Virus record (IMG/VR): IMGVR_UViG_3300017714_000006
Span: 1-61,722 of that record
Length of the DNA stretch: 61,722 nucleotides
Strand: one strand, 5' to 3'
Origin: a virus
Lineage: Duplodnaviria > Caudoviricetes
In this document: positions 23,217 through 61,721 of the stretch, in pieces
Layout: every line of letters begins with the position of its first letter
Position numbering within the stretch: position 1 is the stretch's first letter
Notes under the pieces: model-generated
Told to the model about the DNA's origin: nothing
Databases searched by the model: none
Seen by the model: only the letters and a program-made list of their open reading frames with translations
Program-made: the position numbers and the translations under genes

Positions 23217-23334
23217 TTTCTGTTTCTTTTTTTAGTTTTTGCAAAATGTCGTGTCCAACTAATTGTTCATTTATTTTATTAGTTGGCCAAAAATCACCCT
23301 GCCATTCTTCACTTATATCTGCGTGATCACGCAT
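23188..23334 (-). CDS. Small 48-aa ORF bridging gp46 and the resolvase (not in the ORF track)
   Basis: MRDHADISEEWQGDFWPTNKINEQLVGHDILQKLKKETEIGKQEQDKR; its start overlaps the gp46 stop and its end overlaps the resolvase start. Confidence 0.5.
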   Translation of the reverse strand: MRDHADISEEWQGDFWPTNKINEQLVGHDILQKLKKETEIGKQEQDKR

Positions 23335-25102: not shown

Positions 25103-25109
25103 GTTATTC

Positions 25110-39000: not shown

Positions 39001-42000
39001 CAATGGCTCATTGGCAAAGTATAATATCTTCTACTCCTGGGTTTGAAGGCGACATCCTTGGAACAAATAACTATGAGGCACTAAACAAACAACATTACTT
39101 TGGTGGTGAAATATTTATTCACAACGATTTGAGTATTGTTCACGATGCTTTATATTCCAATGATACAGTAAACGTTACAGATGCATTAAGAACATCAGGT
39201 GAAGATTGGGATAACTTTAGAAATAGATTTAGAGCTCAAGTAGCCAGATTAAATGAAAGAAAAAATTATCTAACTGTTAGAGAATTAGTTGATGATGCAA
39301 TTGAATCAATTACTATTACTAGATCAGGTGGAGACTTATTTAGAACATCTAACATGGTATATAAAACTCCTGTTCGAGTGGAAGAATTTATTCATGCAGA
39401 TGGAGATACAGTATTACCTAGAATATTTTTAAAAGATAGTATTCACAGTGATGACAATATTCAAGACCACGTTTATGTTTACATCTCAGATAATGTAAGT
39501 GGAACACTAACAACAAGACTAGCAATAAAAGATATAGACTATATACAATCAGGAAACTTAATTGAATTTATATATCAACCAATAGCTATGCCAAACAAAG
39601 GTTATCCAAAAATTACAGTGTATAAAAGACACATGGATGATATATGTTATGTTCCTCCTAGTTTAACAAAACTTAAACTTGCACCAGGGTGGTCACCAGA
39701 AGTAGACACTACAAACAATATACTAACTGGGCATGACGGAACACAGTGGGAATTAAAATCAACAGCAGAATTATTTAACATGACAGATGCAAACTTTGAT
39801 GTTGTTAACGCATGTCAGTTTGAATTAGAAAAAAGAATTTACACAGGATTAGTTATAAGTGATACAATTAATACAGATGACGAGTCTGTTGAAAGTTTAC
39901 AATATGGTATGGTTTCAAAGTTCACTCCAAGTGCAACACGTGAAACATGGTATACACTAGAAACAATTAATGATTTACTCAGTAAATCATTTGCACAATG
40001 GAAAGCAAAGAACAAACGAGAAGATACAGAAGTTGTATACTCGCTTGCAGATGTAGATACATGGAACTTTAGTTCAATGGGTTCGGCATTAGGTGCAGAT
40101 ATTCCAGGACAATGGAAAGGTGCATACAAAATATTATTTGGAACAAGCACTCCAGACAAAACGCCATGGCACATGCTTGGTTATGCATTTAAACCTACAT
40201 GGTGGGACAGCACATACAGTTGGACAAATGCTACAAAACGTGCGGCACTTATTAAAGCACTAAAACGTGGACTAGTAGCACCTGGTAGACAAGATATAGA
40301 ATGGGCAAACCATTTGTGGGATTGGGATAATAAATGCCCAGTTACATCAGCAGGTGTATTAGAAACAATTACGACTGTGTTAGGAACTCCACAAGACATT
40401 GATAAAGCAAAACGTTTTGAATTTGGTGATCATGCTGGACTAGAAGCTGAGTGGAGAGCAAGTGGATCAGGACAAGCATCTACAATAGATGCTATTGTTA
40501 AATTAAATCCAACAAAAGCATCTAGCATATTTTATTCACCATCTGTAAAAGTTAATACCAAAGAAATAGATTACTTAGGCAAAGACGATTTAGAAATTTA
40601 TACAACTTCATCTATACCAACACCAGGCAAAGTTTATGGAAGATCAATTGTTGATGTTGAAGTTACAGCTATTGCGTTATTTGATACAAACACATTTGTT
40701 AAACTAGTTGGACCAGATGGATCAACAGAAGCAGACATAACATTATCTTTTGATACTAGACCAGGAGTATACACACCCAATGAAACTAGACGACATGTTA
40801 TTGGTGCAAGTGTATCACACAGAGGAAGAAACTTAACAACACTTCCAGCAATATATACTGGGTTTGACAACTCACAGGTTGCAACATCAACATTTAAATT
40901 TAAAACAAAAGAAGTAGAATATGTAGCAAGCGGTATAGCACAATCTTTATACAATCATACATTGCGTAACAATTTAGATTACAACATAGACAACTTACAT
41001 ACTAAAGTTGATACAAGACTAGGAACACAATTACGTGGATTTAGTAGTAAACATCTTTTAGAATTTAAGACACAAACATACGATGAAACAAAACATACAC
41101 TAGGCGAAAGTGACTTTGAACTATCAATGTATAAAAGCACACCAATTAATATTGCAATTGCTAGTGAAATTACTGTTGAGTATTTGGCTCCAGGTTGGAA
41201 GATTAGTGGCAATGGATATGGTAAACAAGAATTTAATTTCTTTGCACCAGATAACACTAACTCAACTTCGTATACAAATGTGGAAGTTGAATCAGTAGAA
41301 ATTAAGAAATATAAAAAGTTTGCACCAACACATAGCATATTAGAGTATAATGCAATACTTAATAAGATACAAGACACTTATTCATTTATAAGAGGATACT
41401 ACGCTTATTTAGAATCAATTGGATTTGAATTCCCATACAGCGGAGACAGTGTAGCTGTAGAGTTTGTTAAATGGGCATTAACTAATCCATCAACTACTAA
41501 AACATTTGACCTAGGATCTAATTTTAAATTTAAGCCAATACATGGTAGCGTAGTAGAATTAAACACAGGTGTGTTTAAAGAAAATACTATCACTGATACA
41601 AAAGGTATTACAGTTGAATCAGATAATTTATTAGTAAGCAGAACAGAAGATGTATTATCATTAGAAACAAAAGATAAAACAATAATTGGTTCAGCAGGAT
41701 TTGTTGTTGTGGAATACGAACACATTGCATTACTAAATGATAAAACAACGTTTGGTGTTGTTGTGCATGATGATATTAAAAATATAAATCAATACAAAAT
41801 AGCATTCAGAGGATTAATAACTGATAAGTGGGACGGTAATAAACGTGCACCAGGTTACTTAGTTTTTGATGATAAGGTTGTTGAAAACTTTGATAGCAGT
41901 GTGCAATCAGTTGACGACTACTATAAAACAGATGGCATTGACTTTAATCCTACAATTAGAAAACTAGAAGATATAACTATTGGTAATTCAAACAACGAAC

Positions 42001-45000
42001 TTACTATTAGTGAGAATGAGTTTGATTCAATTACTAAACGTAATTATTTTCAAGGGTTGATCAAACAAAGAGGAACATCAAGTGCATTTGATAAAATTGA
42101 ACGTAAATTTATAACTGATAAGCTAGACATTAAAGTTCATGAACAATATATGTTGTCTAGAAGTTACTTTGGTAACACAGACAGATTAGACGCAATAGAA
42201 TTTACATTAGACAATAACACATTTGAAACATCACCACAAGCTATTAAGTTTAATAACTTTACAGGAAGTGAAACTGTATACAATGATGTATTAGTTTATC
42301 CGCAAGGTGATAGTAGATTTGTTAATCCAGTAAAAACAGTTAACGCAGTATCGCTTGCTGTTGGCAAAACTTATCAAATAAAATCATTGGGAACAACATC
42401 TCAAAACGATTGGAATTTTCTTGCAGGAACTTCAGGAGTTACATATGTATCTGGTGATACATTTACTGCGGTTAAGACTAATGAAAACATTACAGGAACA
42501 GGCACAGCTACAACAGGCACTTCGTTTTCTACTCAACCTATAACAGAAGTTGACATAAGTAACTTAACAGCAGGTGCTTTATTAGACACTGAAGCAAAAT
42601 ATAAAACAAACTTATTAAGTGAAATTGGAAATGTATATAACAAATTAGAAGATTATGCAATCATAGAAACTTGGGCAAATAATAAAAGTTATAAAAAAAG
42701 TAATATAGTAAGATACCAAGGTGGATTATATCAGTGTATACCAGATAGCACAACAGTATCTACTGTAAGTGAGAATATAAGCATAACTGGTAATAATACA
42801 AATCCAACATGGCCATCAGGAACAATAGTAAGTATTGATGGTGCAGTGTTTCCTATATCTAAGGAAGTCCAGGAGAAACAACCAATACCAGTTACAGGAA
42901 CAGTTTTGAATCCTGTTATTACTGGTGCAACATCATCAACTAATACACTAATAATTGATGGACAATCAGTAACACTTAGCAAACTAGCAGGTGTCAATGT
43001 TCTAACTGGTGTTCCAGCATCAAAGACAGGAATTGTTCCAGGACCAGCATTTAATTCAAATAATGGATTTGTTACAGATAAGCAATTAGTTATTAATGGA
43101 ATAACTGTTGACTTTGACACAACACCACCAGACGTAATAGAAAACTTTATAGGTGATAACTTAGGAATTACGCCAAGTGATGCAACAGAAAATATCACAG
43201 GTGTAGCAGCACAGCAAACATATACTATTCCTAATACAACACTAAGTGGATCAACATATAGTGTTAGTGGTATAACAGTTGATGGAACTGCTTATGCAGA
43301 AACAACAGACTGGACAATAAGTGGACAAGACATTACATTTACTAATCCAACATTTGCAGGTAGCGAAGCTATTGTAGTTACAATGACACACGTTACAGTT
43401 GTAGATCTCAAAGATACATTTACAATTGCACAAGGAATTGTTGGCACTGCATATACAGTTCAATCAGTTACAGTTGGTGGAACTACACAAACTGATCCAA
43501 CACATTATTCAATCAGTGGACAAACATTAACATTCACTTCTGGAAATGAACCGGCAGACGGAGCATCAATTGTTGTAACTATTGAACATACTCCGTTAAG
43601 TATGACAACTGCAGAAATTGTAACAAAGATCAATGACACAATGGTAGCAAATGGAATCAGCATAACTGAACCAACTGGCACACCATATGTTGCCAATGAT
43701 GCTATACAGGCCGATTTGATTGGAAGTAGATTACGTATACGATACTGGGCTACAAGCACAGATCAGAGTAGCAATGATAGTAAATTAATACTTGGAAGTA
43801 GTATCAATGGCACTAATGAAATATTAGGCTTTGTTACAAATCCAACAGCAAGTTTAGTAGGATTAATCGAAGAACAACAAGAACAAGATTTAACTTTAGA
43901 TGACATAGTTACATTAATTACTAATACATCAAACCTTGGACACATCACTGCAACAAACGACAGTGGGTATCTTAAATTAGTAAGTGGTGCAAACTTAACA
44001 CCGGCTCAGAGAAGAACAACACTAACAGTAGAAGGAACACAGCGAGCAACAGTAGGATTGCCACTTAGCACTGCGGTTACAACATCACCTGTTACTGAAC
44101 CTGTTGACTTAACTACTGCGGTATCTTTAATTACAACTGGACTAGCAGATCCTGTAGCAGCAGGAGGATCGGGTAACGCTGTAACTGGAGTATCAGTATT
44201 AGGCACAGGTAATGCTTTAACTATAGCATCAACTAATCCAATACTTACATTAGCAAATCCTGGCGATGTATTCTTAAATAACGCAGGTATTAGTAGTTAT
44301 GGAGTAATAAGTTTAGTATCAGACAGTTCACAATTAAATACATTTGTTCCATCTGAATGGACAAACATAAGTCATACAGATCCAGCATTGTTTAATGTAT
44401 GGGTAGCAAACGATTCAGATTATGAAATTGATGGTATTGTAGGTAATAATAGTATTGCTGTAGACACAAAACATTATGGATGGAATGTATTCCAAGTTCA
44501 GAGCAGAGGATTATATACAGCAGATTTACAAAATAACCCAACTGATCCACTTACAAAAGATGAACCATGTGGAATATGTGCAGGATCGATGACTGCCGAT
44601 GGAAATGATGCACAAGTAACTGTAAACGCAAATCATGGATTAGCTGTAGGTGATTATGTAATGTTGTTAAACACAACTACTACACCTAACATTGATGGTA
44701 TTCATAAAGTAACAAAAATTGGATCGTCAACAGAATTTTATATTGATCAATATATTGACAAATGTGGATCATCTAGTTCAGTAATGACATTACGATCAAC
44801 AAGATTTTCTACAATAGAACATAGAGATGCAGCATTAAAAAGTATACATTGGAACATTCCACCAAACACATTAGTCTTTACAGACGAGGATACTAATCAA
44901 AAAACATCAATAAATGTATTTGAATCGGTATATCCAGTAGCAGGTGGATCAACTCTTACTGGTGCAGGATATCTAAATGGATATCTATATAATGAAGCAG

Positions 45001-50325: not shown

Positions 50326-50363
50326 TATAAATACTTGACAAAAACCCCAATCTAAAGTATTAT
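50326..50363 (+). promoter_or_regulatory. Tandem late and sigma70 promoters
   Basis: TATAAATA (50326-50333), then TTGACA (50335-50340), 17-nt spacer, TATTAT (50358-50363). Confidence 0.75.
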
Positions 50364-50388: not shown

Positions 50389-50739
50389 ATGGACGAACGT
50401 CTAGAGAAGGCGTTAGAGTTTAGCAATTACACTCTAACCCTTAATAATCAGAAGCAAAATATTAAAAATAGAGTAGCACAACTACAACTAGTGCATTACA
50501 ACGGAGGCGTATTTGTAGCAAATCAAGAAACTATTTCGTTTGTAAAAACAATGATTGATCTTGATAAAACTGTTGATGGTGTTATAATTGATTCAAAAGA
50601 TAATCCAATAAGAGTAAAAGACTACAAAGATCTACTTGAGAAACTTGTTGATGCATATGTTAGTGCCTCACAAGAATATGCAGTAGAATATGATAAGCTA
50701 CGAAAGTCTAGAAGCATTAAATCAATAATGGATTGGTAA
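50389..50739 (+). CDS. Hypothetical protein, first gene of the modification cluster
   Basis: 116 aa with AGGAG SD. Confidence 0.7.
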   Translation: MDERLEKALEFSNYTLTLNNQKQNIKNRVAQLQLVHYNGGVFVANQETISFVKTMIDLDKTVDGVIIDSKDNPIRVKDYKDLLEKLVDAYVSASQEYAVEYDKLRKSRSIKSIMDW

Positions 50740-51636
50740 ATGCCTGAACACAAAGACAAACAAGGTGTATGTTTCTTTGTCTACAACAATGAAGAATTAG
50801 ATTATGTAGACTTAGCCATGCTGGCAGCTAGATATGTTAAAGAGTATCTAAAACTTCCTGTATGTATAATTACAGATGAAGGCACACATGGTTGGCTTAA
50901 ACAATCACAATCACAAGAAGATATTGATAAGTTTGTTGACTATATAAAAATAACCACCGACGAACTTAAACCAAATATACGTAGACACTACGACAGTCCG
51001 TATACAGAATTTAAAGCACAATTTAGTAACAGTAACAAGCATAAGATATGGGAATACAGCCCATTTGAACAAACGTTATTACTAGACACAGATTACATTG
51101 TCAAAAATAGTTTCCTATTAAAGAGTTTTGAATATGATGGTGTAGCAATGTTTAATAATGCATTAAGTATTAGAAACGATAAACCTCATCAAAACGAAAT
51201 ACTGTTATACGATCAAGGAATTAAAATGTGGTGGAGCACCGTTGTGTATTTTGATCGCAGTGACTTCAGTAAAATGTTTTTTGACTTATGGGCTCATATA
51301 GCAGACAACTATCAGTTTTATCAATTCCTATATAACTTTCCGGGTAATTTATTTCGCACAGACTATTGTGTAAGCATAGCAGTGCATATTCTCAGTGGCA
51401 TGGAGCAATCAAATATTATACATAACTATGATGACGAACCTATGTATTTTGTTTCGCAACGAGATAATGTTATTGATGCAAACAATATACAAGACTGGAT
51501 ATGTTTAGGTAACAGTTCAACTGAAAGCTGGAAGGACATTCTTATAAAACACAGCAACTTAGATTTACATGTAATGAACAAACGTGCTTTGTTAAGAGTA
51601 AAACCAAAACTTGTGGAGCATTTTAATGCCAGATAA
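50740..51636 (+). CDS. GT-A fold glycosyltransferase-like protein
   Basis: LPVCIITD and SPFEQTLLLDTDY (DxD motif). Confidence 0.7.
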   Translation: MPEHKDKQGVCFFVYNNEELDYVDLAMLAARYVKEYLKLPVCIITDEGTHGWLKQSQSQEDIDKFVDYIKITTDELKPNIRRHYDSPYTEFKAQFSNSNKHKIWEYSPFEQTLLLDTDYIVKNSFLLKSFEYDGVAMFNNALSIRNDKPHQNEILLYDQGIKMWWSTVVYFDRSDFSKMFFDLWAHIADNYQFYQFLYNFPGNLFRTDYCVSIAVHILSGMEQSNIIHNYDDEPMYFVSQRDNVIDANNIQDWICLGNSSTESWKDILIKHSNLDLHVMNKRALLRVKPKLVEHFNAR

Positions 51637-52471
51637 TATTGCACAAAATGGTTATGTAATAATTGCAGTCAACCCAACTGAATATAGACAAGCACAATGT
51701 TGTGCTTTCTCAATCAAAAGTAAAATGCCTGATGCAAGTGTTACATTAGTAGTAGGCAAACAAAGTAAAGTTCAACAAAAGTTTCTTGAAGGGTTTGATG
51801 CAATTACTGAATTACCATTTACTGTTGCTACAAATTGTAGACAGAATGACTGGCAGTTGTATTGGGCAAGCCCATATGAGAACACAATTGCTATAGATTG
51901 TAGCACATTGGTTAAAACTGATCTAACTAGTGCATGGGATTATTTAATTGATCATTGCAGTATTGCATTTCCTAATTCAATTACTAACATGCGTAAAGAT
52001 CAAATATATCCATTATATAAAAAACATTTAGAAAAAGATTATAACTTAGATGTAATTTACAGCGGTATATTCTTTTTTAAGAAAGATGAAATTGCTCTTA
52101 GACATTTCAAAATGGCAGATATTTATTTTCAATATTGGACTGATGTATGTAGCAAATATTTAAAACCAGAACACATACCAGATTTCTTTGACGCAGACAT
52201 AATGCACACACTAGTAGCTGATCATACTAATGGAGATGTAGTAACTATACCTAAGATATTAAGTTACATTGATATGAGAAACAGTGCAGGCAACACACTA
52301 AACAAAGTTAATAAGTGGACTGATAAACTTACTGTATGGCCAAGTAATGCAGGAAAGATAAAAATACAAAACTATGCAATCAATGATGTTCTATACTATC
52401 ATGAAGAAGAGTTTTTAACACAAGAAATATTCAATGAGCAACAGCATCACTACAACAACATCACAAAGTAA
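51626..52471 (+). CDS. GT-A fold paralogue with degenerate DxD
   Basis: Start moved to ATG 51626 (GGAG SD). SPYENTIAIDCST, YSGIFFFKK, LYYH. Confidence 0.65.
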   Translation: MPDNIAQNGYVIIAVNPTEYRQAQCCAFSIKSKMPDASVTLVVGKQSKVQQKFLEGFDAITELPFTVATNCRQNDWQLYWASPYENTIAIDCSTLVKTDLTSAWDYLIDHCSIAFPNSITNMRKDQIYPLYKKHLEKDYNLDVIYSGIFFFKKDEIALRHFKMADIYFQYWTDVCSKYLKPEHIPDFFDADIMHTLVADHTNGDVVTIPKILSYIDMRNSAGNTLNKVNKWTDKLTVWPSNAGKIKIQNYAINDVLYYHEEEFLTQEIFNEQQHHYNNITK

Positions 52472-53414
52472 TCAACAATGGAACATAAGATTTAACCCGG
52501 AGTCTGGCCGTATACTTGGGATTAGTCCACAACCATTTAAGCAAGTAAACGATAACGAACAGGTAGTATCTGTAACAAACAATGTATGCAGAGAGTTAGT
52601 ATCTGGAGAAAAGAATATGAGAAAGTATTCTATGCATTGGGATTCAATTGATAACCAATGGGATATTGATGTTAAAAGTGATACACTTGTATTAGAAATA
52701 AAAGGTAACAAACTAAATCAGTTTACTCAAGGCACACATCCTGAAAAGAATGATGTGTTTGTTCAAGTTATACGTAACGAAAATATTTTGAGAATTAAAA
52801 TTAACTTGTTGACTATTAGACGTTCTCTTAATCTTGGACAGATTAATAATATTAAAAATGAAAACCCTGACATATTAGATTTATATGTATGCAGAAAAAA
52901 CAATCCAGATTATTTAATTGGAGTAATACCAGTTGATGCAATTGAATTATTTAACAAGTATGTAATCTATATTGATGTTCCAAAAAATATTATTGAACAT
53001 ATTAATTCATGGGACGATATAAGTATTTTTACAAAACCTGTTTTTAAAACTTATGGTATAGAATTTACTGACATGTCAGCAGATAGTATACAAGATCATA
53101 ATAAGAAGCACCAAGTATCAAACTCGTCACTGGATGCTCATATAAATATGTATAAATTAAATGATAATTTAATTATTGATAGTAAGCTAGATAAAGATAT
53201 GATGCATTATTTTAATAATAAAAGATATATGCAATTCCATGTTTCTGATAGTCACATTGATAATTATGTAACCACGCTAAACGTAAGTGTAGCTAAGTTA
53301 CTTTATTATAATAAAGTTAAATTAGACTTACCTGCTAACTGGCCTGCAAACCCATTAATTGCTTTTGCAGAAACTCGACTTGCAGTAAATTATATTACGG
53401 AGAAAGAACAATGA
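52434..53414 (+). CDS. Hypothetical protein
   Basis: 326-aa ORF overlapping both neighbours. Confidence 0.65.
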   Translation: MSNSITTTTSQSNQQWNIRFNPESGRILGISPQPFKQVNDNEQVVSVTNNVCRELVSGEKNMRKYSMHWDSIDNQWDIDVKSDTLVLEIKGNKLNQFTQGTHPEKNDVFVQVIRNENILRIKINLLTIRRSLNLGQINNIKNENPDILDLYVCRKNNPDYLIGVIPVDAIELFNKYVIYIDVPKNIIEHINSWDDISIFTKPVFKTYGIEFTDMSADSIQDHNKKHQVSNSSLDAHINMYKLNDNLIIDSKLDKDMMHYFNNKRYMQFHVSDSHIDNYVTTLNVSVAKLLYYNKVKLDLPANWPANPLIAFAETRLAVNYITEKEQ

Positions 53415-54397
53415 GTAAAATGCAAAGCATTAACGAATTTGATATTGTATATATCAGCTATGATGAACCTAATGCTGATGAGAACTACGCAGACTTATTA
53501 GATAAATGTCCATGGGCTAAACGTAGTCATGGAGTAGAAGGAAGTGATGCAGCACACAAGGCCGCAGCCAACATGGCAGAGACTGATAGGTTTATTACTA
53601 TTGATGCAGACAATATTGTAGATCCAGCTTTCTTCAGCGTGGAAGTAGACATGGATAAAATTACTAATGTTGATGTTATTAGTTGGGCTGGCAAGAACAT
53701 TACTAATGGACTTGTATACGGCAATGGTGGCATCAAGTGTTGGCCGAAAGATGTTGTTATGAATATGCGAACACATGAAAATGCAGATCCTAATAACAAA
53801 GCTGCACAAGTAGACTTTTGTTGGAACATTAACTATGTGCAAATGAATAATATCTATTGCACAGTAATGAATAACGGTAGTCCACTACAAGCCTGGCGTG
53901 CAGGTTTCCGTGAAGGAGATAAGATGGGATTAGTAGACGGTGACGTAATAGATCCAGCTGACATGAAAAAGACAGTGCATGATAAAAACTACAAACGTTT
54001 ATTAACATGGATGAGTGTTGGCGATGATAGTGAGAATGGCATATGGGCAGTGTATGGCGCACGTCTAGGATGTCATATGACAAACATTACTAGAACAGAT
54101 TGGGATTGGAAAAACGTTAGAGACTTTAAATGGTTAACTAATTATTTTAATGAAAACGTATTACCAAAGTTTCAAAACAGTCCAGATCAATTATGCAAAC
54201 GCACAGGCACACAATGGAATTACAAAGCAGTAGAAGATGAAAGCATTAGACTTGGTATTGATTTACGTAAGAGATTAGATTTAGAAATTGCTGACTTAGG
54301 CAAAGAAGGCTCTCGATTCTTTAAAGAAGTATACATCAACCCAAGTCGTATGGGTGCTCAAATTAGAGAAGACCAGGTTGAAGATACATTAGAATAA
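53411..54397 (+). CDS. Glycosyltransferase-like protein (DxD)
   Basis: ISYDEPNA, FITIDADN, YGNGGIKCWP, QAWRAGFREG. Confidence 0.6.
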   Translation: MSKMQSINEFDIVYISYDEPNADENYADLLDKCPWAKRSHGVEGSDAAHKAAANMAETDRFITIDADNIVDPAFFSVEVDMDKITNVDVISWAGKNITNGLVYGNGGIKCWPKDVVMNMRTHENADPNNKAAQVDFCWNINYVQMNNIYCTVMNNGSPLQAWRAGFREGDKMGLVDGDVIDPADMKKTVHDKNYKRLLTWMSVGDDSENGIWAVYGARLGCHMTNITRTDWDWKNVRDFKWLTNYFNENVLPKFQNSPDQLCKRTGTQWNYKAVEDESIRLGIDLRKRLDLEIADLGKEGSRFFKEVYINPSRMGAQIREDQVEDTLE

Positions 54398-54398
54398 A

Positions 54399-54713
54399 AT
54401 GAATATAGGTGTTGATATAGTTTCAGTTAATAGGATTAAAAAAATCTATAACAAGTATGGAACACGATTCACTGATCAATTTTTAACAGATGTAGAAAAA
54501 CAAAAAGAACTTACTCCAGAATATATATCAAAGTGTTGGGCAGTAAAGGAAGCATCAATTAAAGCAAGCGGCATAACAGATGCTAAACAATTCTCATATG
54601 GCAAGAACGGTAAGCAACCTATTGTAGTTACTAAAGTAAAAGGCAATTGGAATCTAAGTGTATCAGATGAAAAAGATTATGCAGTAGCAATGGTAATAAA
54701 ATCAGATGAGTAA
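54399..54713 (+). CDS. acpS: Holo-ACP synthase (4'-phosphopantetheinyl transferase)
   Basis: IGVDIV, FLT..E, WAVKEASIKA, GKQP, LSVSDEKDYAVAMV. Confidence 0.9.
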   Translation: MNIGVDIVSVNRIKKIYNKYGTRFTDQFLTDVEKQKELTPEYISKCWAVKEASIKASGITDAKQFSYGKNGKQPIVVTKVKGNWNLSVSDEKDYAVAMVIKSDE

Positions 54714-56280
54714 ACTAACCAAAGACTTTGATTGGGAAATTAATTCTCGAACAAAGGGATTTGATCCTGTTGGCAGAAACCAACAACACATGAAGGACAT
54801 GCTAAACAGTACCGGTCCTGGATTCTGCTTGGCTAAATGGACACAAGTTACTATGCACTTAGGAAATGGCACAACACATAGTTGTCACCATCCATCACCA
54901 CACAAGATACCATTGGATGAAATAAAGAACAATCCTGGTGCGTTACACAATACCAATTATAAAAAACAACAACGCAAAGCAATGCTTAACGGCAAACGTC
55001 CTAAAGAGTGTGATTTCTGTTGGCGAGTGGAAGACAACGGAGAGACAAGCGATCGTGTTTATAAAAGTTTAGATCAATTTAGTTTTAAGCATCATGATAA
55101 GATTGCAGAACTAGTGGGCGACGAAGATATATTTCCAACATATGTTGAAGTGAGCTTTGGCAATACATGTAATTTTAAATGTGCTTACTGTGGTCCTGCA
55201 TATAGTAGTCAGTGGCAACAAGAAAATAAAAACGGCGGTGCATATCAATTAACTGATATGACGTTTAATAATATAAGAAAAGATGAAACACACATACCGC
55301 AACGTGAACACAATCCATACATTGAAGCATTTTGGGAATGGTTTCCAGAAGCATACAAACACATGCATACATTTCGTATTACAGGCGGCGAGCCTTTATT
55401 AATTAAAGATACAATGAAAGTTATTGACTTTTTATTAGAGAACCCAAATCCAAATTTAAACTTTGCTATAAACAGTAATGGGTGTCCACCTGGCAAGTTA
55501 TGGAATGAGTTTACCGATAAGGTGAGACAATTAGAAGAAAGAAAGTGTGTTAAAGATTTTGTATTGTTTACTAGTGCTGAAGCAGGTGGAGATAGAAATG
55601 ATTATATTCGACATGGTATGGACTATGAACTATGGAAAAAGAATATAGAATACTTTTTAGAAAATACATTATACGCAGGTGTTACTTGTATGAGTGCGTT
55701 TAACTTACTAAGTCTTAGTTCTTTTAAAGAGTTGTTACAATGGATATTAAAACTTAAACAAAATTATAATTGGGCAGGATGGGACCATTGGTTACACAGC
55801 AAAGGGCTTCAACGACCTTTACTTAACAACAATGCTGTTAGAGAGGATGGTAGACCTATAAAGCCAGCTCGTGTGCTAATAGATATTCCTTATCTAAGGC
55901 ATCCTTCTTTCTTAGATGCAAACATTGCCTCAATTCCACTAATTCAAGATCATTTATTACCTGCAATTGACTTTATGTATGATAACTTATCGCATGCTGA
56001 TTGGGGTGGCAACATAGCATTTGATGATTGGGAAGCAAACAAATTACGTAGAACTGTAGTTGGTATTATTGATAAAGCACAAGAACATATAGCAGAACAG
56101 ATAACAACCAATCCAGTTACAAGACAAAACAGAAGTAGGTTTTATGATTTTATAAATCAATATGACAGTCGTAGAGATACTAATTTCTTAGATACATTTC
56201 CAGAGTATGCAGACTTCTTAGAGCTATGCAAACAAGAACATGATATACTGCACGAATTGAAAGCACAGGGCAAAGCATGA
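54706..56280 (+). CDS. Radical SAM enzyme with N-terminal Cys-rich (twitch/SPASM-like) domain
   Basis: CNFKCAYC and ITGGEP; N-terminal CLAKW...SCHH...CDFCW. Confidence 0.9.
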   Translation: MSKLTKDFDWEINSRTKGFDPVGRNQQHMKDMLNSTGPGFCLAKWTQVTMHLGNGTTHSCHHPSPHKIPLDEIKNNPGALHNTNYKKQQRKAMLNGKRPKECDFCWRVEDNGETSDRVYKSLDQFSFKHHDKIAELVGDEDIFPTYVEVSFGNTCNFKCAYCGPAYSSQWQQENKNGGAYQLTDMTFNNIRKDETHIPQREHNPYIEAFWEWFPEAYKHMHTFRITGGEPLLIKDTMKVIDFLLENPNPNLNFAINSNGCPPGKLWNEFTDKVRQLEERKCVKDFVLFTSAEAGGDRNDYIRHGMDYELWKKNIEYFLENTLYAGVTCMSAFNLLSLSSFKELLQWILKLKQNYNWAGWDHWLHSKGLQRPLLNNNAVREDGRPIKPARVLIDIPYLRHPSFLDANIASIPLIQDHLLPAIDFMYDNLSHADWGGNIAFDDWEANKLRRTVVGIIDKAQEHIAEQITTNPVTRQNRSRFYDFINQYDSRRDTNFLDTFPEYADFLELCKQEHDILHELKAQGKA

Positions 56281-56957
56281 AACATCCTTCTATAAAAACA
56301 ATACACTCTAAAGTAGGTTTATTAAATATATTATTCACACCAGGAGCAAGTGGAACTTTCTTAGCCAGCATGTTAGCCCAAGCAATAAGAGATCCTTGGT
56401 GGGAAGATTATAAGCCTTCAACTGATAATGAATTGTTTAGAGTGACAAATGAATTTCTTAATCCATTTAATCATATTGCAATGACATGGCATCCAATTAA
56501 TATTCCTGAAACACATGAAGTGTTAAGTCTAAAAGATATTAATTGGATTAACTTAACTATTACTCCTGAAGAAGCTAAGTTTACAAAAGTATTATGGGCA
56601 ATAAAAAGACAAGACTTTACAGGTGTTACAAAAGAAGATATACTGCATAGACTATCAAGTGACACTGATGAAGAATACAAAGGCATGCATGCTAGACAAA
56701 AGCGTATAGCATCACAACTGTCAGTTAATAATAATGTGTTAGATGTAAAGTTTAGTGATGTGTTTGCTGATGGTAACACAGATGTAATACTATCCATATT
56801 GAACACAGTATACAAAGGACACTATGTTGCAAACGGTATAGTAGACAATATAGCAAAACAATGTGTTGCCAAATACAAAGTAGATGTTAAGCTACATGAT
56901 GATTTACTTGTGCCGGACGGTGACGGACTTATTGATTATATACTAGCTCAAGTATAA
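56277..56957 (+). CDS. Hypothetical protein, possibly sulfotransferase / P-loop-like
   Basis: LFTPGASGTFLASML resembles a 5'-phosphosulfate-binding loop; VKFSDVF. Confidence 0.4.
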   Translation: MKHPSIKTIHSKVGLLNILFTPGASGTFLASMLAQAIRDPWWEDYKPSTDNELFRVTNEFLNPFNHIAMTWHPINIPETHEVLSLKDINWINLTITPEEAKFTKVLWAIKRQDFTGVTKEDILHRLSSDTDEEYKGMHARQKRIASQLSVNNNVLDVKFSDVFADGNTDVILSILNTVYKGHYVANGIVDNIAKQCVAKYKVDVKLHDDLLVPDGDGLIDYILAQV

Positions 56958-57947
56958 ATCAAAGAACCCATTCTTTCTTAGTTCTAAATTTATAAAATGA
57001 TCTCCATACGTGTATGGAGTTCTATCAACACCTGAACTACTAAGGTTAGGCAAACTTGAATCTAATAGATCTTTATATAATTTAAAACCCATGTCATTGT
57101 TATGATACATATATGTAAACTCTGTATCTGGCATAGTATTTGCTATACTATTAATTGATTGTAGCTCTTCTGGTATATCTTTACAAAATACCAGGTTACG
57201 CAATGCTACTTCAAATGGAACTGTAAAGAAATTAGACATTTTATACTTTCCACCTACTGGTGCGTAATACCCATTGGTTAATACAACATTAGGATCGCAT
57301 GTTGTAGTGCCGCTTGTTATTAATACTCTAGTAGCATTTAAATAGTAAGCAAGCATACAACTACTGTGTCCATTCTTGCAATCAGCAATAACAGTATACT
57401 CTGTGTTTGGAATTAACTTCTTGATATAGTCAGCTATCTTTTCTGGACTGTTAAGTTCATCATTGATACCATCATACAAACAACTATCATACAATACTGG
57501 ATTGCGATAACTTCTTTTAACATCATCTACTATGCTTATAACATTATAGTCGGTGTAATGATCTAACATCCAACTGCCTTGATGTTCAACTGAATTTCTA
57601 GCAAGTTGTAGTAACCAACTGCCGCCACTTACTGTTACTATAGTTTTATCTTTGCCTCTATCAACATATGATACTGCATCATTATGATCTTGTATTGAAT
57701 TATAATGATTATTTTCATACATTAATGTATCTATGTTTTTTAAATTATCAAAATTATCTACAGCATATTGTCTCTGTTCAGCGGTAACTTGATCAGAATT
57801 ATTATTCAAGTGCTTTATCCAAAATTGATTCATTGCACTATAAAAGTTTATACTTTGATTTGAATCCTCAAAGTCCCAATCATTGTCAGCTATGTATTGT
57901 ATAATAGGGCACTGCCATTTTCTTCTGCCCGAATAATAAAATTTCAT
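56943..57947 (-). CDS. Hypothetical protein, possible alpha/beta-hydrolase fold
   Basis: IVTVSG, YNVISIVD, VIADCKNGHSS at an elbow-like position, and a C-terminal GDH. Confidence 0.4.
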   Translation of the reverse strand: MKFYYSGRRKWQCPIIQYIADNDWDFEDSNQSINFYSAMNQFWIKHLNNNSDQVTAEQRQYAVDNFDNLKNIDTLMYENNHYNSIQDHNDAVSYVDRGKDKTIVTVSGGSWLLQLARNSVEHQGSWMLDHYTDYNVISIVDDVKRSYRNPVLYDSCLYDGINDELNSPEKIADYIKKLIPNTEYTVIADCKNGHSSCMLAYYLNATRVLITSGTTTCDPNVVLTNGYYAPVGGKYKMSNFFTVPFEVALRNLVFCKDIPEELQSINSIANTMPDTEFTYMYHNNDMGFKLYKDLLDSSLPNLSSSGVDRTPYTYGDHFINLELRKNGFFDLYLS

Positions 57948-58988
57948 TTATATTCCACCACTCCACCCTGGAAAGATATTAGCATCATATTCTTTTTCAA
58001 GTTCCTCATTGGTTAGTTTTTCTAACTGTGGTATAACACCATCTGGCCAATACTCCGCTCTTACTGGAAATGGTGCTATTGGAACCAGTGGTGCTTTTGG
58101 TGGATGTGTTTGCAATGGATAAGTGTATACGTTTGGTGTATACCTTGCTATATATGGAAACATACTCTTAGGTATGTTCATCTTAGATGAAATTCCAGCA
58201 ATCATTTCATGTGTGTCTATTTGAGGATAGCCACGATAAATTTTATGCATTGAATGATTACTGCTATGCTTACTAGGTATATGTTCTAGTGCATCGTATA
58301 CCCATACGTCTAATGCATTGCCAACTCCCATTACCCATAAGTCTTGACCGTTAGGAAACATCATTGTTCCGTTGTATCTTCTAATAATTTCTATAGGCTG
58401 ATATAATATTAAATTTTTATCAGCAGTGCAAAACGTTTGACGCTTGTTTACTGGATTATCCATTAAACTGTGAACCATTGTTTCAAATGCATGCATTGGC
58501 CATACCAGAACATCATAACGTTGCATAACAACTAAGTCATAGGTTATATCTGCTTCAGCTTCATATTTTTGCTTTAGCATAATAACTTCGGTCCACCCTG
58601 CTAATACCTTAGACTGTAGTATAGATTTTTTAATATCTCTGAGTTCATTTTCATATTCAGTTGTATATAATTTAAATTTTTTTGGTTTGTAATGTTCAAG
58701 TATTTGTTTTGTTTGATACTTAACTGCATCTTCTGGTAGATGTTGTTGATCTTTAGCATACTCATAATCAAATTTTTCTTTGTTATACTTGTGTCTTGTA
58801 TATGTAGTTTCATATTCTTTTAAACTACAAAAGAAATCTACATTTATACCATCCATTTTGTAAAATTGTTTTATAGATTCTATACATGCATCACCTGTTC
58901 GATATTGCCCATACATGCACACAGCTACGTTTTTAATTTTTATTCTACTATCTTGAAGCTGTTCGTCTCTCCATTTTTTATTCGGCAT
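57948..58988 (-). CDS. Glycosyltransferase-like hypothetical protein
   Basis: Start moved to ATG 58988 (GGAGG SD). VAVCMYGQYRT...YDLVVMQRYD...DLWVMG. Confidence 0.5.
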   Translation of the reverse strand: MPNKKWRDEQLQDSRIKIKNVAVCMYGQYRTGDACIESIKQFYKMDGINVDFFCSLKEYETTYTRHKYNKEKFDYEYAKDQQHLPEDAVKYQTKQILEHYKPKKFKLYTTEYENELRDIKKSILQSKVLAGWTEVIMLKQKYEAEADITYDLVVMQRYDVLVWPMHAFETMVHSLMDNPVNKRQTFCTADKNLILYQPIEIIRRYNGTMMFPNGQDLWVMGVGNALDVWVYDALEHIPSKHSSNHSMHKIYRGYPQIDTHEMIAGISSKMNIPKSMFPYIARYTPNVYTYPLQTHPPKAPLVPIAPFPVRAEYWPDGVIPQLEKLTNEELEKEYDANIFPGWSGGI

Positions 58989-59499
58989 AAAAATCCTCCA
59001 ACGAAGTCCATTGTATATTCCTTTGCCACAATGTTCTTTGTAACAATTGTCTACTAGTATCACCTGCTAACATCTGCGGTTCGTTTTTATAACTATCAAT
59101 CCATTTCCATACACTTACTAATTTCATAAAACAACTATAGCTGGTTACAAATGTATTGGGTGTAGGAGTTGGCTCAGGATAGTGTCCAACATCATCTATG
59201 ACTCTAAACATATGATCAAATATAATTGTGTTCTTGGGAAGTTTATTGAACCTATCTAGTAGATAATCAAAGACGTATGGATCTGTTGTTGCACAAACTG
59301 TAGAGCAATTGTTGGCAAGCTCATGCTGTCCATACTTGTCATACATGTTTACACCATTTGTCCAGTGTGCTTTAAAATTAGTATACAAAGAGTGTTCGTA
59401 TTGCAACCAAGGGTTCACAGTATCATTACGTTTTGTTTTGAATATTTCGTATGTTGAATGGTTGAAGCTAGTTGCACCAGTTACGCTTAGTAGTATCAA
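58978..59499 (-). CDS. Hypothetical protein
   Basis: 173 aa, TTG start with GGGAG SD, downstream of a late promoter. Confidence 0.55.
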   Translation of the reverse strand: MILLSVTGATSFNHSTYEIFKTKRNDTVNPWLQYEHSLYTNFKAHWTNGVNMYDKYGQHELANNCSTVCATTDPYVFDYLLDRFNKLPKNTIIFDHMFRVIDDVGHYPEPTPTPNTFVTSYSCFMKLVSVWKWIDSYKNEPQMLAGDTSRQLLQRTLWQRNIQWTSLEDFYAE

Positions 59500-59523
59500 A
59501 GTTGACTCCCTATAATTATGTAT

Positions 59524-59542
59524 GTATTTATCGACTAAATAC
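59524..59542. promoter_or_regulatory. Back-to-back late promoters
   Basis: GATAAATAC on - (59532-59524) and CTAAATAC on + (59535-59542). Confidence 0.65.
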
Positions 59543-59546
59543 TAGT

Positions 59547-60326
59547 ATGGCGTTCACTAAATTGATAGACACCTTTATACTTCCGGAGGTGCAAGCTGAA
59601 CTGGATAAAGTAAAACCGCAGCTCAACGGAAGGCACCAATACGAAACTAATATCAAGACTTGGCTTAAACCTTTAATAGATTTAAAAGACTTTTATGTAT
59701 ATCCAATGAATGGTATAACTGAATGTATTAACTGGTGGCAACAGCACGAAAAACGAAACGTTAGAAAAGCCAAAGGTGACTACGAATGGGTAGACTATAA
59801 CAAAGTAATGACAGTTGGTAATACAATTGCTTATGTTAGTTGTCCTAGCAGTATTGATGGAAACTACACAGAGATACCAGATGAGGTTCCTGTTGTGCTT
59901 GATATAGCATATGCTGGGTGTGTTCCTGTTAAACCAATTAAGTTAAAAGACAATGTAGAGAAAGTATTCTATAGTTTAAGTAAGCCATTTGGTATAGGAA
60001 ACATAAGAACAGGTTGGTATTTTACTAGACGCCCGGACGCAAAACTACATGCACTAAGCATAGAAGCAGCATATTATAACCATTGTGCTAATCAGTATGC
60101 AGAACATGTAATAAATACATACAGTATAGATTATATACATACAGAATTAAAGGATATACAACACAGCGTTTGTGCTGAACATGACCTAACACCAAGTGAT
60201 TGTATTTGGTTAGCTACTAGCACAGATGAACAATACAAAGACTTTAGACGTCATGAACACACTGACGTTGCGAGACTCTGTATCACAGAATTGATTAAGG
60301 AATATTATGGAAAACAGTCCAGGTAA
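59547..60326 (+). CDS. Compact PLP-dependent aminotransferase-like (fold type I) enzyme
   Basis: Start moved to ATG 59547. NGITE, SCPS, VVLDIAY, SLSKPFG...RTGW (PLP lysine), C-terminal RL. Confidence 0.8.
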   Translation: MAFTKLIDTFILPEVQAELDKVKPQLNGRHQYETNIKTWLKPLIDLKDFYVYPMNGITECINWWQQHEKRNVRKAKGDYEWVDYNKVMTVGNTIAYVSCPSSIDGNYTEIPDEVPVVLDIAYAGCVPVKPIKLKDNVEKVFYSLSKPFGIGNIRTGWYFTRRPDAKLHALSIEAAYYNHCANQYAEHVINTYSIDYIHTELKDIQHSVCAEHDLTPSDCIWLATSTDEQYKDFRRHEHTDVARLCITELIKEYYGKQSR

Positions 60327-61467
60327 AAATATATCAGCAGCAGAACGCATAGAGTTCAAGCCAACTGAGGAAATGAACGCTCCTATGACTGGTGACCCGA
60401 CCAAGGATAATATTACTATTCTTGATGACAAGCCACCTATCTTTCATAGCTTACCAGAGTATGATATAGAAAAGAATCCATTTAGTTTTTTATATGTTGA
60501 CATGACATATGATTGTAACATGGAATGCGAGTTCTGTTATAACCCAGTTAGAACATACAGCACACTGGACATCGAATGGTTTGAAGATGTATGTGCTAGA
60601 CTGCCACACCCTGTTAACTTTAGATTGTTAGGCGGTGAACCAACACTGTATCCGCATTTAGATAGAGCATTAGATGCCGCTACCAAACACGGACACCAAG
60701 CAGCAATTGTTACCAATGGATTGCGTTTGGCTAGCATGAGTTATGCTAAGAAACTTAAAAAGGTTTTAGATCGTAACCCTACAGTAAACGTTAGCTTGAG
60801 TATGAACGGTGGTATGCATCACGATGATTGGTATATAGATATTGATGGGGAGAGCAGACGCAAGAAGAAAGTCAAAGCACTAGAGAACATGTTGGAACTT
60901 GGCTATCGTAGACTTTGTATTAACGCTATTATTGTTAAAGGTTTAAACGAAGGACTAGTAAAAGAATTTTATGACAAAGCATTACAGCACCCAGGACAAA
61001 TAACAAACATACGTTTCCGCACAGCAGCCAAACAAGGTCGTTGGAATGATGAGATTGGTGCGTTTGATAATGATGAACACGATCAAACCAGTTACACAGG
61101 ATTGCAACTGGATGAATACATTAAAACTGTAATACCAGAAGCACGTAGTCCTATTAAAGTAATACGTGACGGTTATCACCCTAGCACAGGTTCAGGAGTT
61201 AGACTCAATGTTCCAGGCTTAAAGTGTAACCAGTGTTGCTTTATGTATTATATAAGACCACAGCTATGGGTTGCTACAGTTGAATTTGGATCACATAACA
61301 GTGCGTTATGCTGGAGACGAGGACAATTAGTGCAAGGCAATGGCGTTATACAACCATTCCACCATTACATGGATGAACTAAGTAGATACATTCAAACTTA
61401 TAAGCCAGGTGGAATGAGGGATACAGCTTCACAAAAAGCAATAAAAAGCATACCTATTCAGGAATAA
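60307..61467 (+). CDS. Radical SAM enzyme
   Basis: CNMECEFC, LLGGEPTL, IVTNG; C-terminal CNQCC. Confidence 0.9.
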   Translation: MENSPGKNISAAERIEFKPTEEMNAPMTGDPTKDNITILDDKPPIFHSLPEYDIEKNPFSFLYVDMTYDCNMECEFCYNPVRTYSTLDIEWFEDVCARLPHPVNFRLLGGEPTLYPHLDRALDAATKHGHQAAIVTNGLRLASMSYAKKLKKVLDRNPTVNVSLSMNGGMHHDDWYIDIDGESRRKKKVKALENMLELGYRRLCINAIIVKGLNEGLVKEFYDKALQHPGQITNIRFRTAAKQGRWNDEIGAFDNDEHDQTSYTGLQLDEYIKTVIPEARSPIKVIRDGYHPSTGSGVRLNVPGLKCNQCCFMYYIRPQLWVATVEFGSHNSALCWRRGQLVQGNGVIQPFHHYMDELSRYIQTYKPGGMRDTASQKAIKSIPIQE

Positions 61468-61478
61468 AGGATAAAACT

Positions 61479-61721
61479 ATGAACAAAGATGAAACAAAAC
61501 AAGCAATACAAGATGTATTGACTGACGGCTTATTCCTCAAAGAGGATACAGTATTTGATTGGACTACAACATTTGAAGCTCTAGGACTAGATAGCTTAGA
61601 TAAGATTGAATGTAAAATGACAATCGAAGATGGATTAAGCGTAACATTACCAGAAGATAGCTTTGCAGGTGACGTGCTAACTGTAGAAGATGCTGTTAAC
61701 TTGGTAATGGAGCATGCATAA
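61479..61721 (+). CDS. acpP: Acyl carrier protein
   Basis: 80 aa, acidic; LGLDSLD (phosphopantetheine Ser), IED...LPED, TVEDAV. Confidence 0.9.
   Translation: MNKDETKQAIQDVLTDGLFLKEDTVFDWTTTFEALGLDSLDKIECKMTIEDGLSVTLPEDSFAGDVLTVEDAVNLVMEHA

Follow-up and report, generated by a model that had tools for sequence, protein, structure and literature searches.

Islands of variable gene content beside the tail-fibre genes, with glycosyltransferase, lipopolysaccharide (LPS)-like and radical S-adenosylmethionine (SAM) cassettes, are described for pelagimyophages (PMC7029224) and cyanomyophages (PMC12801897) in the accessible text of the two reports. The available parts of two further papers mention a marine T4-like genome with 12 radical SAM genes (PMC5332604) and an aquatic lineage of large phages with four core putative glycosyltransferases (PMC12619734). 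Genes for acyl carrier proteins (ACPs) have been reported from jumbo phages (PMC13573597; PMC7760394), and the portion at hand of one of these studies presents a syntenic "host-interface island" with duplicated ACPs as a possible envelope-modifying module. Here, we describe a cassette in a linear stretch of 61,722 nucleotides (nt) of viral DNA (Caudoviricetes), the whole of IMG/VR record IMGVR_UViG_3300017714_000006 and hereafter the window, in which a phage encodes its own AcpS-type 4'-phosphopantetheinyl transferase and its own divergent ACP together with two radical SAM enzymes (B and H), a miniature enzyme-like protein of the pyridoxal phosphate (PLP) type (G) and a protein with a predicted glycosyltransferase fold (E). 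Phage glycan-tailoring islands are already known from annotation; the carrier-protein cassette and the two orphan enzyme families G and H are not described. In the open-access literature, covered as main text without supplementary gene lists, we found no phage in which an AcpS-ACP pair goes together with radical SAM and PLP enzymes, and no exchange of ACP for coenzyme A (CoA).

The pelagimyophage and cyanomyophage islands resemble the one in the window in being variable, adjacent to tail fibres and full of glycosyltransferase, sugar-nucleotide and radical SAM cassettes, whereas ACP, AcpS, H and two further cassette proteins, D and F, are not described in the accessible text on them. The only cultured-phage homologue of G, 45% identical and annotated as "putative aminotransferase", is that of Pelagibacter phage Mosig EXVC030M (MT647606), where MoaA-like radical SAM genes, an ArnB-like aminotransferase gene, a carbamoyltransferase gene and tail-fibre genes surround it. 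The window differs from these phages in that it belongs to a jumbo phage and has a conserved island core in common with Ralstonia phage RsoM2USA. The ACPs of Flavobacterium and Erwinia phages are likewise encoded in large phage genomes, but their hosts and lineages differ, and the available text on them reports no AcpS, radical SAM or PLP partner and no analysis of co-variation.

Two cellular pathways offer the nearest chemical likeness. The rfbK-O genes of Vibrio cholerae O1 direct an ACP-dependent N-acylation by which tetronate is placed on perosamine; a dedicated ACP and acyl-activating enzymes within a glycan cluster supply an unusual acyl group to an amino sugar. That system is cellular and works with an AMP-ligase and reductase-type enzymes, and it is not known to have a radical SAM enzyme, a PLP enzyme or an AcpS of its own. 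For butirosin, the available text of PMC13707489 gives the 4-amino-2-hydroxybutyrate (AHBA) genes btrI, J, K, O, V, H and G, the radical SAM enzyme BtrN and a cited title with the words "acyl carrier protein-mediated pathway". In the butirosin pathway an aminoacyl unit is assembled and tailored on a dedicated ACP and then moved to an amino sugar, and a twitch-type radical SAM enzyme lies in the cluster. The butirosin genes, however, form an antibiotic cluster of Bacillus, and nothing recognisable as an ATP-grasp loader, a monooxygenase or a BtrH-type transferase was seen in the phage; the comparison is a chemical analogy, and homology is not claimed. The roles of the individual Btr proteins are taken here as general background.

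The cassette consists of the following genes, with starts of open reading frames (ORFs) corrected from relatives and protein lengths in amino acids (aa):

54399 to 54713, + strand: AcpS-type 4'-phosphopantetheinyl transferase, 104 aa (PF01648, TIGR00556, alignment to solved AcpS)
54706 to 56280, + strand: B, N-terminal-twitch radical SAM protein, 524 aa, CX3CX2C (NF033640)
56277 to 56957, + strand: C, putative sulfotransferase-like P-loop protein, 226 aa (language-model lead only)
56943 to 57947, - strand: D, possibly alpha/beta-hydrolase-like, 334 aa (language-model lead; no family match)
57948 to 58988, - strand: E, predicted GT-A-fold (glycosyltransferase-like) protein, 346 aa (AlphaFold2 model, Foldseek, VIA)
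58978 to 59499, - strand: F, 173 aa, found in clade A only (see below), no family match
59547 to 60326, + strand: G, miniature fold-type-I PLP-enzyme-like protein, 259 aa (AlphaFold2 model and Foldseek; start set from relatives)
60307 to 61467, + strand: H, radical SAM protein of a virus-dominated family, 386 aa (PF04055; extra invariant cysteines)
61479 to 61721, + strand: dedicated ACP, 80 aa (PF00550; stop codon cut by the window end)

Family models identify both members of the carrier-protein pair. AcpS exceeds the cut-offs of PF01648 (38.7 bits against 25; 1.2e-9) and TIGR00556 (47.3 against 45.35 bits) and stays below those of all species-level AcpS equivalogs. It aligns end to end with solved holo-ACP synthases, best with 3hyk (4.4e-7; residues 2-101 on residues 7-117), and matches both the N-terminal G-x-D and the K-E-A-x-x-K motif, whose residues we take to bind metal. 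Judged by its sequence, the enzyme is predicted to transfer phosphopantetheine from CoA to the ACP serine. The ACP passes PF00550 (28.6 bits, cut-off 20.8); its D38-S39-x-D41 is invariant in 16 of 16 relatives, and the DSLD motif aligns with that of solved ACPs. It resembles type-II ACPs, with those of type-II fatty acid synthase (FAS) as best PDB matches, yet scores 40.8 bits on the housekeeping AcpP equivalog TIGR00517, where 70.45 are required. Only its stop codon is missing at the window end, as judged against the close relative L003. A predicted complex of H and ACP scored 0.03 against a mark of 0.32, which speaks neither for nor against binding.

A search of viral contigs with B gave 20 loci, to which Ralstonia phage RsoM2USA, the only match among phage records, adds one more. 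Across these 21 loci, the upstream protein GT3 is encoded beside B in 16, and the genes u2, GT1 and GT2, which also precede the cassette, occur in 15 to 16, so that this core is common in large phages. Only three of the 21 (L003-L005) contain AcpS, C, D, F, G, H and ACP, in full synteny with the window; in all three close viral contigs synteny extends over the whole set from AcpS to ACP (A to I). AcpS lies between GT3 and B in 4/4 close contigs. With a profile of H, G was found near H in 10 of 10 loci in viral contigs.

A scan of metagenomes for H matched at least 597 stretches, at least 322 of them confirmed as relatives, and 80 loci were kept, forming 55 groups at ≥98% nucleotide identity of H; a few of them coincide with contigs of the viral loci. 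By identity to H they fall into clade A (≥65%; 38 loci in 27 groups), clade B (50-65%; 26 in 21) and clade C (<50%; 16 in 7), with the partner genes distributed as follows (loci / groups):

ACP: clade A 30 / 22; clade B 0
AcpS: clade A 10 / 7; clade B 0
G: clade A 32 / 25; clade B 23 / 19
D: clade A 22 / 18; clade B 0
E, window type: clade A 23 / 18; clade B 0
E-like 303-aa protein: clade A 0; clade B 7 / 4
F: clade A 22 / 17; clade B 0
HAD hydrolase: clade A 21 / 15; clade B 0
Nucleotidyltransferase: clade A 20 / 16; clade B 5 / 3
Thiolase-like protein: clade A 0; clade B 16 / 14
AMP-ligase: clade A 0; clade B 10 / 7
210-aa protein: clade A 0; clade B 16 / 12
178-aa protein: clade A 0; clade B 16 / 14

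None of the partners was found in the 16 loci (7 groups) of clade C. In clade A, ACP follows H in all 30 loci with at least 350 nt of flank past a complete H, at a distance of 9-24 nt in 26 of them, and AcpS is present in 10 of the 11 loci with at least 6 kb upstream, L070 being the exception; misses in this clade arise because contigs are short. The order H-ACP-G replaces G-H-ACP in L065, L066, L068 and L070, and the three genes remain adjacent. In the sister clade B, where H, G and an E-like protein are retained, an aryl/acyl-CoA ligase and a thiolase-like enzyme take the place of ACP, AcpS and D. Its ligase passes the cut-off of the benzoate-CoA ligase family TIGR02262 (408 bits against 375), its thiolase-like protein carries PF00108 and PF02803, and some of its loci encode a true sulfotransferase (9e-40). 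Searches of the whole clade-B viral records, which are fragments, found PF00550 in 0/4 and PF01648 in 0/4. Inside one clade-B cassette (L031:13737-14738) a protein resembling the large subunit of RuBisCO (NF003252, 2.2e-17, far below cut-off) is encoded between a small cupin-like ORF and the nucleotidyltransferase gene.

These distributions support a real, phage-restricted and conserved module built around a carrier protein. The preliminary description of the window had named scattering of the genes among relatives as a sign against a common system; they are not scattered, since ACP follows H throughout, AcpS accompanies them wherever enough upstream sequence is present save once, and G, H, D, E and F occur together. 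Generic auxiliary metabolic genes that raise the host's output of fatty acids, lipid A or lipoate, with ACP and AcpS as mere neighbours of the other enzymes, would agree with the jumbo-phage ACP genes reported without partners in the accessible text of PMC13573597 and PMC7760394, and with the type-II FAS ACPs as best structural matches. We nevertheless hold this explanation to be extremely improbable: ACP stays adjacent to H even when gene order changes, ACP, AcpS and D are jointly missing from loci with the CoA ligase and thiolase, and the ACP lies under the AcpP equivalog cut-off. The exchange of ACP, AcpS and D for CoA ligase and thiolase makes thioester chemistry look like the theme common to both clades, and we infer that the substrate of H and G is a unit activated as a thioester, held on ACP here and on CoA in clade B. 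D, encoded only where ACP occurs (22/38 clade-A against 0/26 clade-B loci), is the best candidate for taking the unit off ACP.

G, whose true start lies at 59547 according to its relatives, gave an AlphaFold2 model with a mean predicted local distance difference test (pLDDT) of 91.9. Foldseek matched the model at E ≤0.001 to at least 500 structures, headed by fold-type-I aminotransferases and lyases (4e-11, probability 1.0) such as TAA1, alliinase, CobD, C-S lyases and HisC, with TMq of 0.55-0.69 and TMt of 0.43-0.51 on chains of 318-427 aa. Profiles place it less clearly: it reaches 17.8 bits on PF00155, below the cut-off of 19.7, and its best PDB-profile match is CobD at E 0.28. Across 36 sequences K146 (in S-L-S-K), D119, N106 and R154 are invariant, and Y122 is invariant or nearly so; by motif, these residues are putative PLP contacts, with K146 as candidate Schiff-base lysine and D119 as candidate for the aspartate pairing with the pyridine nitrogen. 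G and its listed relatives measure 234-284 aa against about 350-430 aa for the full two-domain size, and on its predicted structure G is a cut-down fold-type-I PLP fold of about 250 aa. None of the 451 members of the family has a Pfam match or a functional name. A scan of genome contigs with G gave five loci, namely two short contigs of metagenome-assembled genomes (MAGs) and three proteins of Bdellovibrionota type, and no cellular model system for G was found in it. In the latter three, from MAGs of Oligoflexia, Bdellovibrionales and Bacteriovoracaceae (L036:8774-10903, L037 and L038), a G-like domain of 23-28% identity lies towards the C-terminus of ORFs of 327-709 aa; in L036, the one of the three whose context was read, no related neighbours were recognised and the context is uninformative.

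Both B and H contain CX3CX2C and exceed the PF04055 cut-off of 29.5 bits (37.6 and 53.0 bits, respectively). B belongs to the N-terminal-twitch subfamily (NF033640, 299.3 bits against 170, residues 39-504, 4.5e-89), on which H scores only 20.5 bits, and H reaches no NCBIfam cut-off. In the H family C70, C74 and C77 are invariant, as are the additional cysteines C96, C310, C311 and C335. A search of 5.8 billion proteins returned 48 matches to H, with generic names and one labelled "[bacterium]", and by tblastn neither H nor E had a match in 50,697 phage records. The closest solved relative of the H profile is GDGT-MAS (tetraether lipid synthase Tes; 7tol, 5.2e-21), followed by BlsE (4.9e-8). 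The likeness to GDGT-MAS covers the radical SAM core only (positions 62-249); the solved chain has 526 aa against 386 in H, the regions outside the core are unmatched, and H obtains 36.6 bits where the family model NF045702 requires 450, so that H is not a member of that family. A defence-system reading of B and H was rejected, PADLOC having returned only generic matches to a viperin-like radical SAM core. In L012, L014, L015, L017-L019 and L021, the B homologue is followed by four to five paralogous N-terminal-twitch radical SAM genes in tandem (e.g. L014:8147-16346), a striking expansion of a subfamily without known function. A single locus without a phage gene among the seven ORFs scanned (L103:1-6485) encodes a 33%-identical H-like protein beside a TPR-sulfotransferase (PF13469, 1.3e-48), an adenylylsulfate (APS) kinase (4e-68), a glyoxalase-fold protein, two methyltransferases and a weakly matching AMP-binding protein; this lead may represent a cellular cousin pathway making a sulfated product.

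The GT-A fold of E was recognised in an AlphaFold2 model (pLDDT 86), which Foldseek matched to GT-A enzymes at 2.6e-5 and VIA at Z 11-12 over 190-220 residues with an rmsd of 3.5-4.7. Among the matches, which have low TM-scores (about 0.38), are Mnn9, B3GalT5, hyaluronan synthases, B3GNT2 and GnT-I, and also nucleotidyltransferases. R157 and D159 are invariant and D151 nearly so. E belongs to no Pfam family, its PDB-profile search gave nothing significant, and 7 of the 57 scanned among its 186 representative relatives match DUF7796. Its homology to the 303-aa clade-B protein is supported by hhalign (97.6%, E 3.7e-12 with a deeper profile; 40.8% with shallow alignments).

For C, D and F no Pfam or NCBIfam family match was obtained. 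D, with 30 unnamed homologues, has an invariant D-C-K-x-G-H motif, D285 and H317, and S195 in 17 of 18 sequences, a conservation pattern resembling Ser-Asp-His; by language model (0.94, a lead only) it groups with clusters containing 11% Asp2 and 18% Peptidase_S9 members. The language-model neighbours of C (0.93, again a lead) include 44-45% Sulfotransfer_1 members, whereas hhalign gave 0.3% against two phage Sulfotransfer_1 proteins, on very shallow alignments, and 0.3% against small P-loop proteins of relatives, on shallow ones; its PDB-profile search found nothing significant.

Upstream of AcpS, the island begins with five further genes, preceded by a promoter-like motif; a second motif-bearing region separates F from G:

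50326 to 50333, + strand: TATAAATA motif, candidate T4-type late promoter, 56-63 nt upstream of u2, the first gene of the long + strand operon
50389 to 50739, + strand: u2, conserved first island gene, 116 aa, in 16 of the 21 loci with B; no family match
50740 to 51636, + strand: "GT1", 298 aa, D116-x-D118 invariant; glycosyltransferase label putative
51611 to 52471, + strand: "GT2", 286 aa, conserved together with GT1; label putative
52434 to 53414, + strand: X, 326 aa, in closer relatives only
53411 to 54397, + strand: "GT3", 328 aa, most conserved island protein, D65-x-D67 invariant; label putative
59500 to 59546, no strand: divergent F/G intergenic region with one TAAATA facing each way

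GT3 is 48-95% identical across distant jumbo phages. GT1, GT2, X and GT3 have no Pfam or PHROG match, PDB-profile searches with GT1 and GT3 gave nothing significant, and hhalign relates these two to the E family at less than 1%, on shallow alignments. The genes of the first unit on the + strand (u2, GT1, GT2, X, GT3, AcpS, B and C) abut or overlap, a second unit on the - strand comprises F, E and D, and a third on the + strand G, H and ACP.

Most enzyme functions named in the preliminary description are borne out: the phosphopantetheinyl transferase, the ACP with an intact serine motif and the two CX3CX2C enzymes by family cut-offs, the fold-I PLP enzyme by model, Foldseek and invariant residues, though below the PF00155 cut-off, and the GT-like ORF, with E, by a predicted fold matched over about 200 residues. 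Its sulfotransferase-like and hydrolase-like ORFs (C and D) are reduced to leads, and its upstream block of glycosyltransferases has no match in Pfam, PHROG or PDB profiles. That all the genes were served by TAAATA late promoters did not hold. Of 14 genes, three have the motif within 80 nt upstream, namely u2, F and G, with which the three operons begin, and the full TATAAATA precedes u2 only. Both are rarer in the window than in dinucleotide-preserving shuffles (TAAATA 68 against 107.6 +/- 9.0, TATAAATA 4 against 9.6 expected); as TATAAATA is not enriched, a promoter function can only be presumed, and a late-type promoter at each of the three unit starts is possible on sequence grounds. Scans for sigma-70 promoters and terminators gave counts at or below shuffle expectation.

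At 17% CheckV completeness in 61.7 kb, the window is a fragment of a marine jumbo phage with a genome of roughly 350 kb; megablast against phage records found no match at the DNA level. It covers a head, portal and baseplate region, with a major head protein (phrog_138, 1.2e-100), a portal (phrog_213, 6.9e-110), a baseplate wedge (phrog_10646, 6.8e-271), and a hub/lysozyme-like protein and tail-fibre-like proteins before the cassette. Nuclease subunits resembling SbcC and SbcD (23327-26132, - strand; phrog_77, 6.7e-104; phrog_100, 7.6e-71), encoded between the head and baseplate modules, are comparable to T4 gp46/gp47-type genes. A single ORF of 3,849 aa (36081-47630), of the virion structural family phrog_10938 (5.5e-210), shortly precedes the tail-fibre-like genes and the island; its product would be a candidate acceptor, should virions be what the island decorates. 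The cassette follows directly on the baseplate wedge, hub and tail-fibre-like genes, and is placed in a variable island like the hypervariable regions of pelagimyophages.

The gap between GT3 and B and the region after B vary among relatives. By eye from translations, the variable genes encode cytidylyltransferase-like, short-chain dehydrogenase/reductase (SDR), cupin, DegT-like, carbamoyltransferase, small P-loop and SGNH-like proteins, and an SDR epimerase/dehydratase is also found in relatives' loci by Pfam. The GT3/B junction, the site of AcpS in the window, is an insertion hot spot: in L006 (7672-9008) and L007 (7934-10004) it holds genes resembling, again by eye, dihydrofolate reductase (DHFR) and thymidylate synthase, and in L007 also a cytidylyltransferase-cupin-like gene.

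Past the ACP, and thus beyond the window edge, the nearest relatives (L003 and L039, H 97% identical) encode a DUF6071 protein of 291 aa, which has a GDS start and matches GDSL weakly, followed by a gene on the opposite strand. In most other clade-A loci the ACP is followed by a HAD hydrolase (HAD_2, 1.7e-22), a sugar-nucleotidyltransferase-like protein (NTP_transferase also matched), an N-twitch radical SAM protein and a protein of 151-159 aa. In the 148-kb contig of L070, two ORFs past the cassette (17903-20495) resemble by eye a periplasmic binding protein and the large membrane subunit of a tripartite tricarboxylate-type transporter. The preliminary description had seen no ketosynthase or adenylation enzyme and pointed to the genes after 61722 as the place to look for a ligase, ketosynthase or acyltransferase. 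In agreement with the first point, PF00109 and PF00501 were found in 0/4 ACP-bearing viral records (only 9-17% complete), and a thiolase or AMP-ligase in 0/38 clade-A loci; past the edge, the relatives show the DUF6071/GDSL-like gene or the HAD and nucleotidyltransferase genes instead. Of its overall interpretation, the conserved and phage-restricted carrier-protein module is supported and the "assembly line" is not.

We tentatively read the locus as a carrier-protein-dependent tailoring cassette, in the variable glyco-island of a marine jumbo myovirus, for a nucleotide-activated glycan unit; this is our preferred reading, plausible though just short of probable. AcpS enzymes are able to transfer acyl-phosphopantetheine from acyl-CoAs. 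The phage AcpS would make holo-ACP, and a small acyl or aminoacyl unit would be held on it as a thioester, loaded by a host enzyme (e.g. a transacylase) or directly from acyl-CoA by AcpS. G might remodel the unit by PLP chemistry at C-alpha or C-beta, H might alter it by radical C-H chemistry, and D might pass it to a sugar or sugar-phosphate, which in most relatives would be nucleotide-activated by the HAD protein and nucleotidyltransferase encoded downstream of ACP. E, the conserved upstream proteins and the N-twitch radical SAM protein B would then build the unit into a glycoconjugate, to which C may add sulfate. The acceptor, the weakest step of the scheme, would most likely be cytoplasmic and made by the phage, e.g. 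a virion protein. The context speaks for a glycan unit: both versions of the cassette have a GT-A protein, HAD and nucleotidyltransferase genes come after ACP in most relatives, and relatives carry sugar-tailoring genes at the same position, all of which points to a sugar-linked end product, which is probably an undescribed acylated sugar-type decoration.

Several observations weigh against this reading. No loader of the ACP was found in the four ACP-bearing records. Since the DUF6071/GDSL-like gene takes the place of the HAD and nucleotidyltransferase genes in L003 and L039, nucleotide activation may not apply to this phage. Neither a fold nor a family is confirmed for C, D or F, and the upstream GT proteins are only putative glycosyltransferases. 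G is far more widespread than H (451 against 48 matches) and is present without H in Pelagibacter phage Mosig. The nearest solved relative of H acts on lipid tails, and the H-like gene of L103 lies with a sulfotransferase and an APS kinase and no glycosyltransferase; both would fit a sulfated acyl product without glycan equally well. RNA-labelled marine libraries of two studies, and those of a third whose RNA label is uncertain, contain contigs that match parts of GT3, B, E, F, H and ACP identically; these contigs are compatible with transcription in nature but no proof of it, as DNA can be present in such libraries, and parts of the stretch without such cover (e.g. 51.6-53.1 kb) carry no meaning.

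The same facts about H and L103 lend themselves to a free small molecule or lipid-like compound without glycan, such as a sulfated or aminated acyl signal, an anti-defence agent or a toxin. The relation of H to the lipid-tail-coupling GDGT-MAS, the pairing of H and G in clade B with an aryl-CoA ligase, a thiolase and a true sulfotransferase, and the distant H-like gene beside sulfotransferase, APS kinase and methyltransferase genes agree with such a product. It is distinctly unlikely all the same, as a GT-A-fold protein co-varies with the cassette in both clades, most clade-A loci have HAD and nucleotidyltransferase genes after ACP, GT-like and sugar-tailoring genes surround the cassette, and no export protein was found among the island proteins.

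The position of the island bears on a further alternative, in which the same chemistry changes a glycoconjugate of the host envelope (LPS O-chain, capsule or other surface glycan) and blocks superinfection or alters recognition during a long latent period. This is how glycosyltransferase, LPS-like and radical SAM cassettes in the tail-fibre regions of pelagimyophages (PMC7029224) and cyanomyophages (PMC12801897) are read in the available text, the island of the window has the same position, and the sole cultured-phage homologue of G lies in such a pelagimyophage region. The published reading is itself drawn from annotation, however, and late-type motifs stand at the operon starts, next to structural genes. 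No membrane protein, flippase, polymerase or polyprenyl-phosphate transferase was found in the island, where 0/15 proteins contain a hydrophobic 19-mer with a Kyte-Doolittle (KD) value of at least 1.6, so that all 15 look soluble. We consider a change of the host envelope unlikely. The soluble proteins and the late structural surroundings favour, for the preferred glycan-tailoring cassette, a cytoplasmic acceptor such as a virion protein.

Soluble proteins would also suit a hypermodification of the phage DNA, with a glycosylated or aminoacylated base that escapes restriction. Phage thymidine hypermodification uses PLP and radical SAM enzymes, and phage glycosyltransferases glycosylate DNA; the thymidylate-synthase-like and DHFR-like genes between GT3 and B in L006 and L007 might be added. 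That pair, though, fits ordinary synthesis of thymidylate (dTMP), and neither the window nor the loci read showed a recognisable hydroxymethylase, base kinase or aGPT-type transferase. We know of no role of ACP or AcpS in DNA modification, which counts against it, the island sits in the structural and tail-fibre region, and no positive sign of DNA modification was seen there; this explanation is very improbable.

A bolder form of the preferred reading is a virus-restricted thiotemplate pathway, in which AcpS, ACP, H and G would make a new acyl or aminoacyl substituent; a sugar bearing it would be attached to proteins of the tail or baseplate, and an evolutionarily interchangeable CoA-based version would operate in T4-like marine phages. 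We regard it as unlikely; if true, no virion decoration made after translation with a carrier protein would have been known before it.

Tail-fibre-adjacent islands of glycosyltransferase and radical SAM genes are widespread in marine myoviruses and known only from annotation, and the cassette makes them accessible to concrete tests. Small in size and apparently soluble in all its proteins, it forms a co-varying set of AcpS, ACP, G, H, D and E. Because the ACP should hold the intermediate covalently, mass spectrometry of the ACP could read the chemistry directly. Two orphan enzyme families are defined, G with 451 relatives and H with at least 322 metagenome stretches, and the ACP-based form of the core is seen to be exchanged naturally for a CoA-based one. 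A decoration of virions or host surfaces by the product, if real, would bear on host range and on competition between phages in the ocean.

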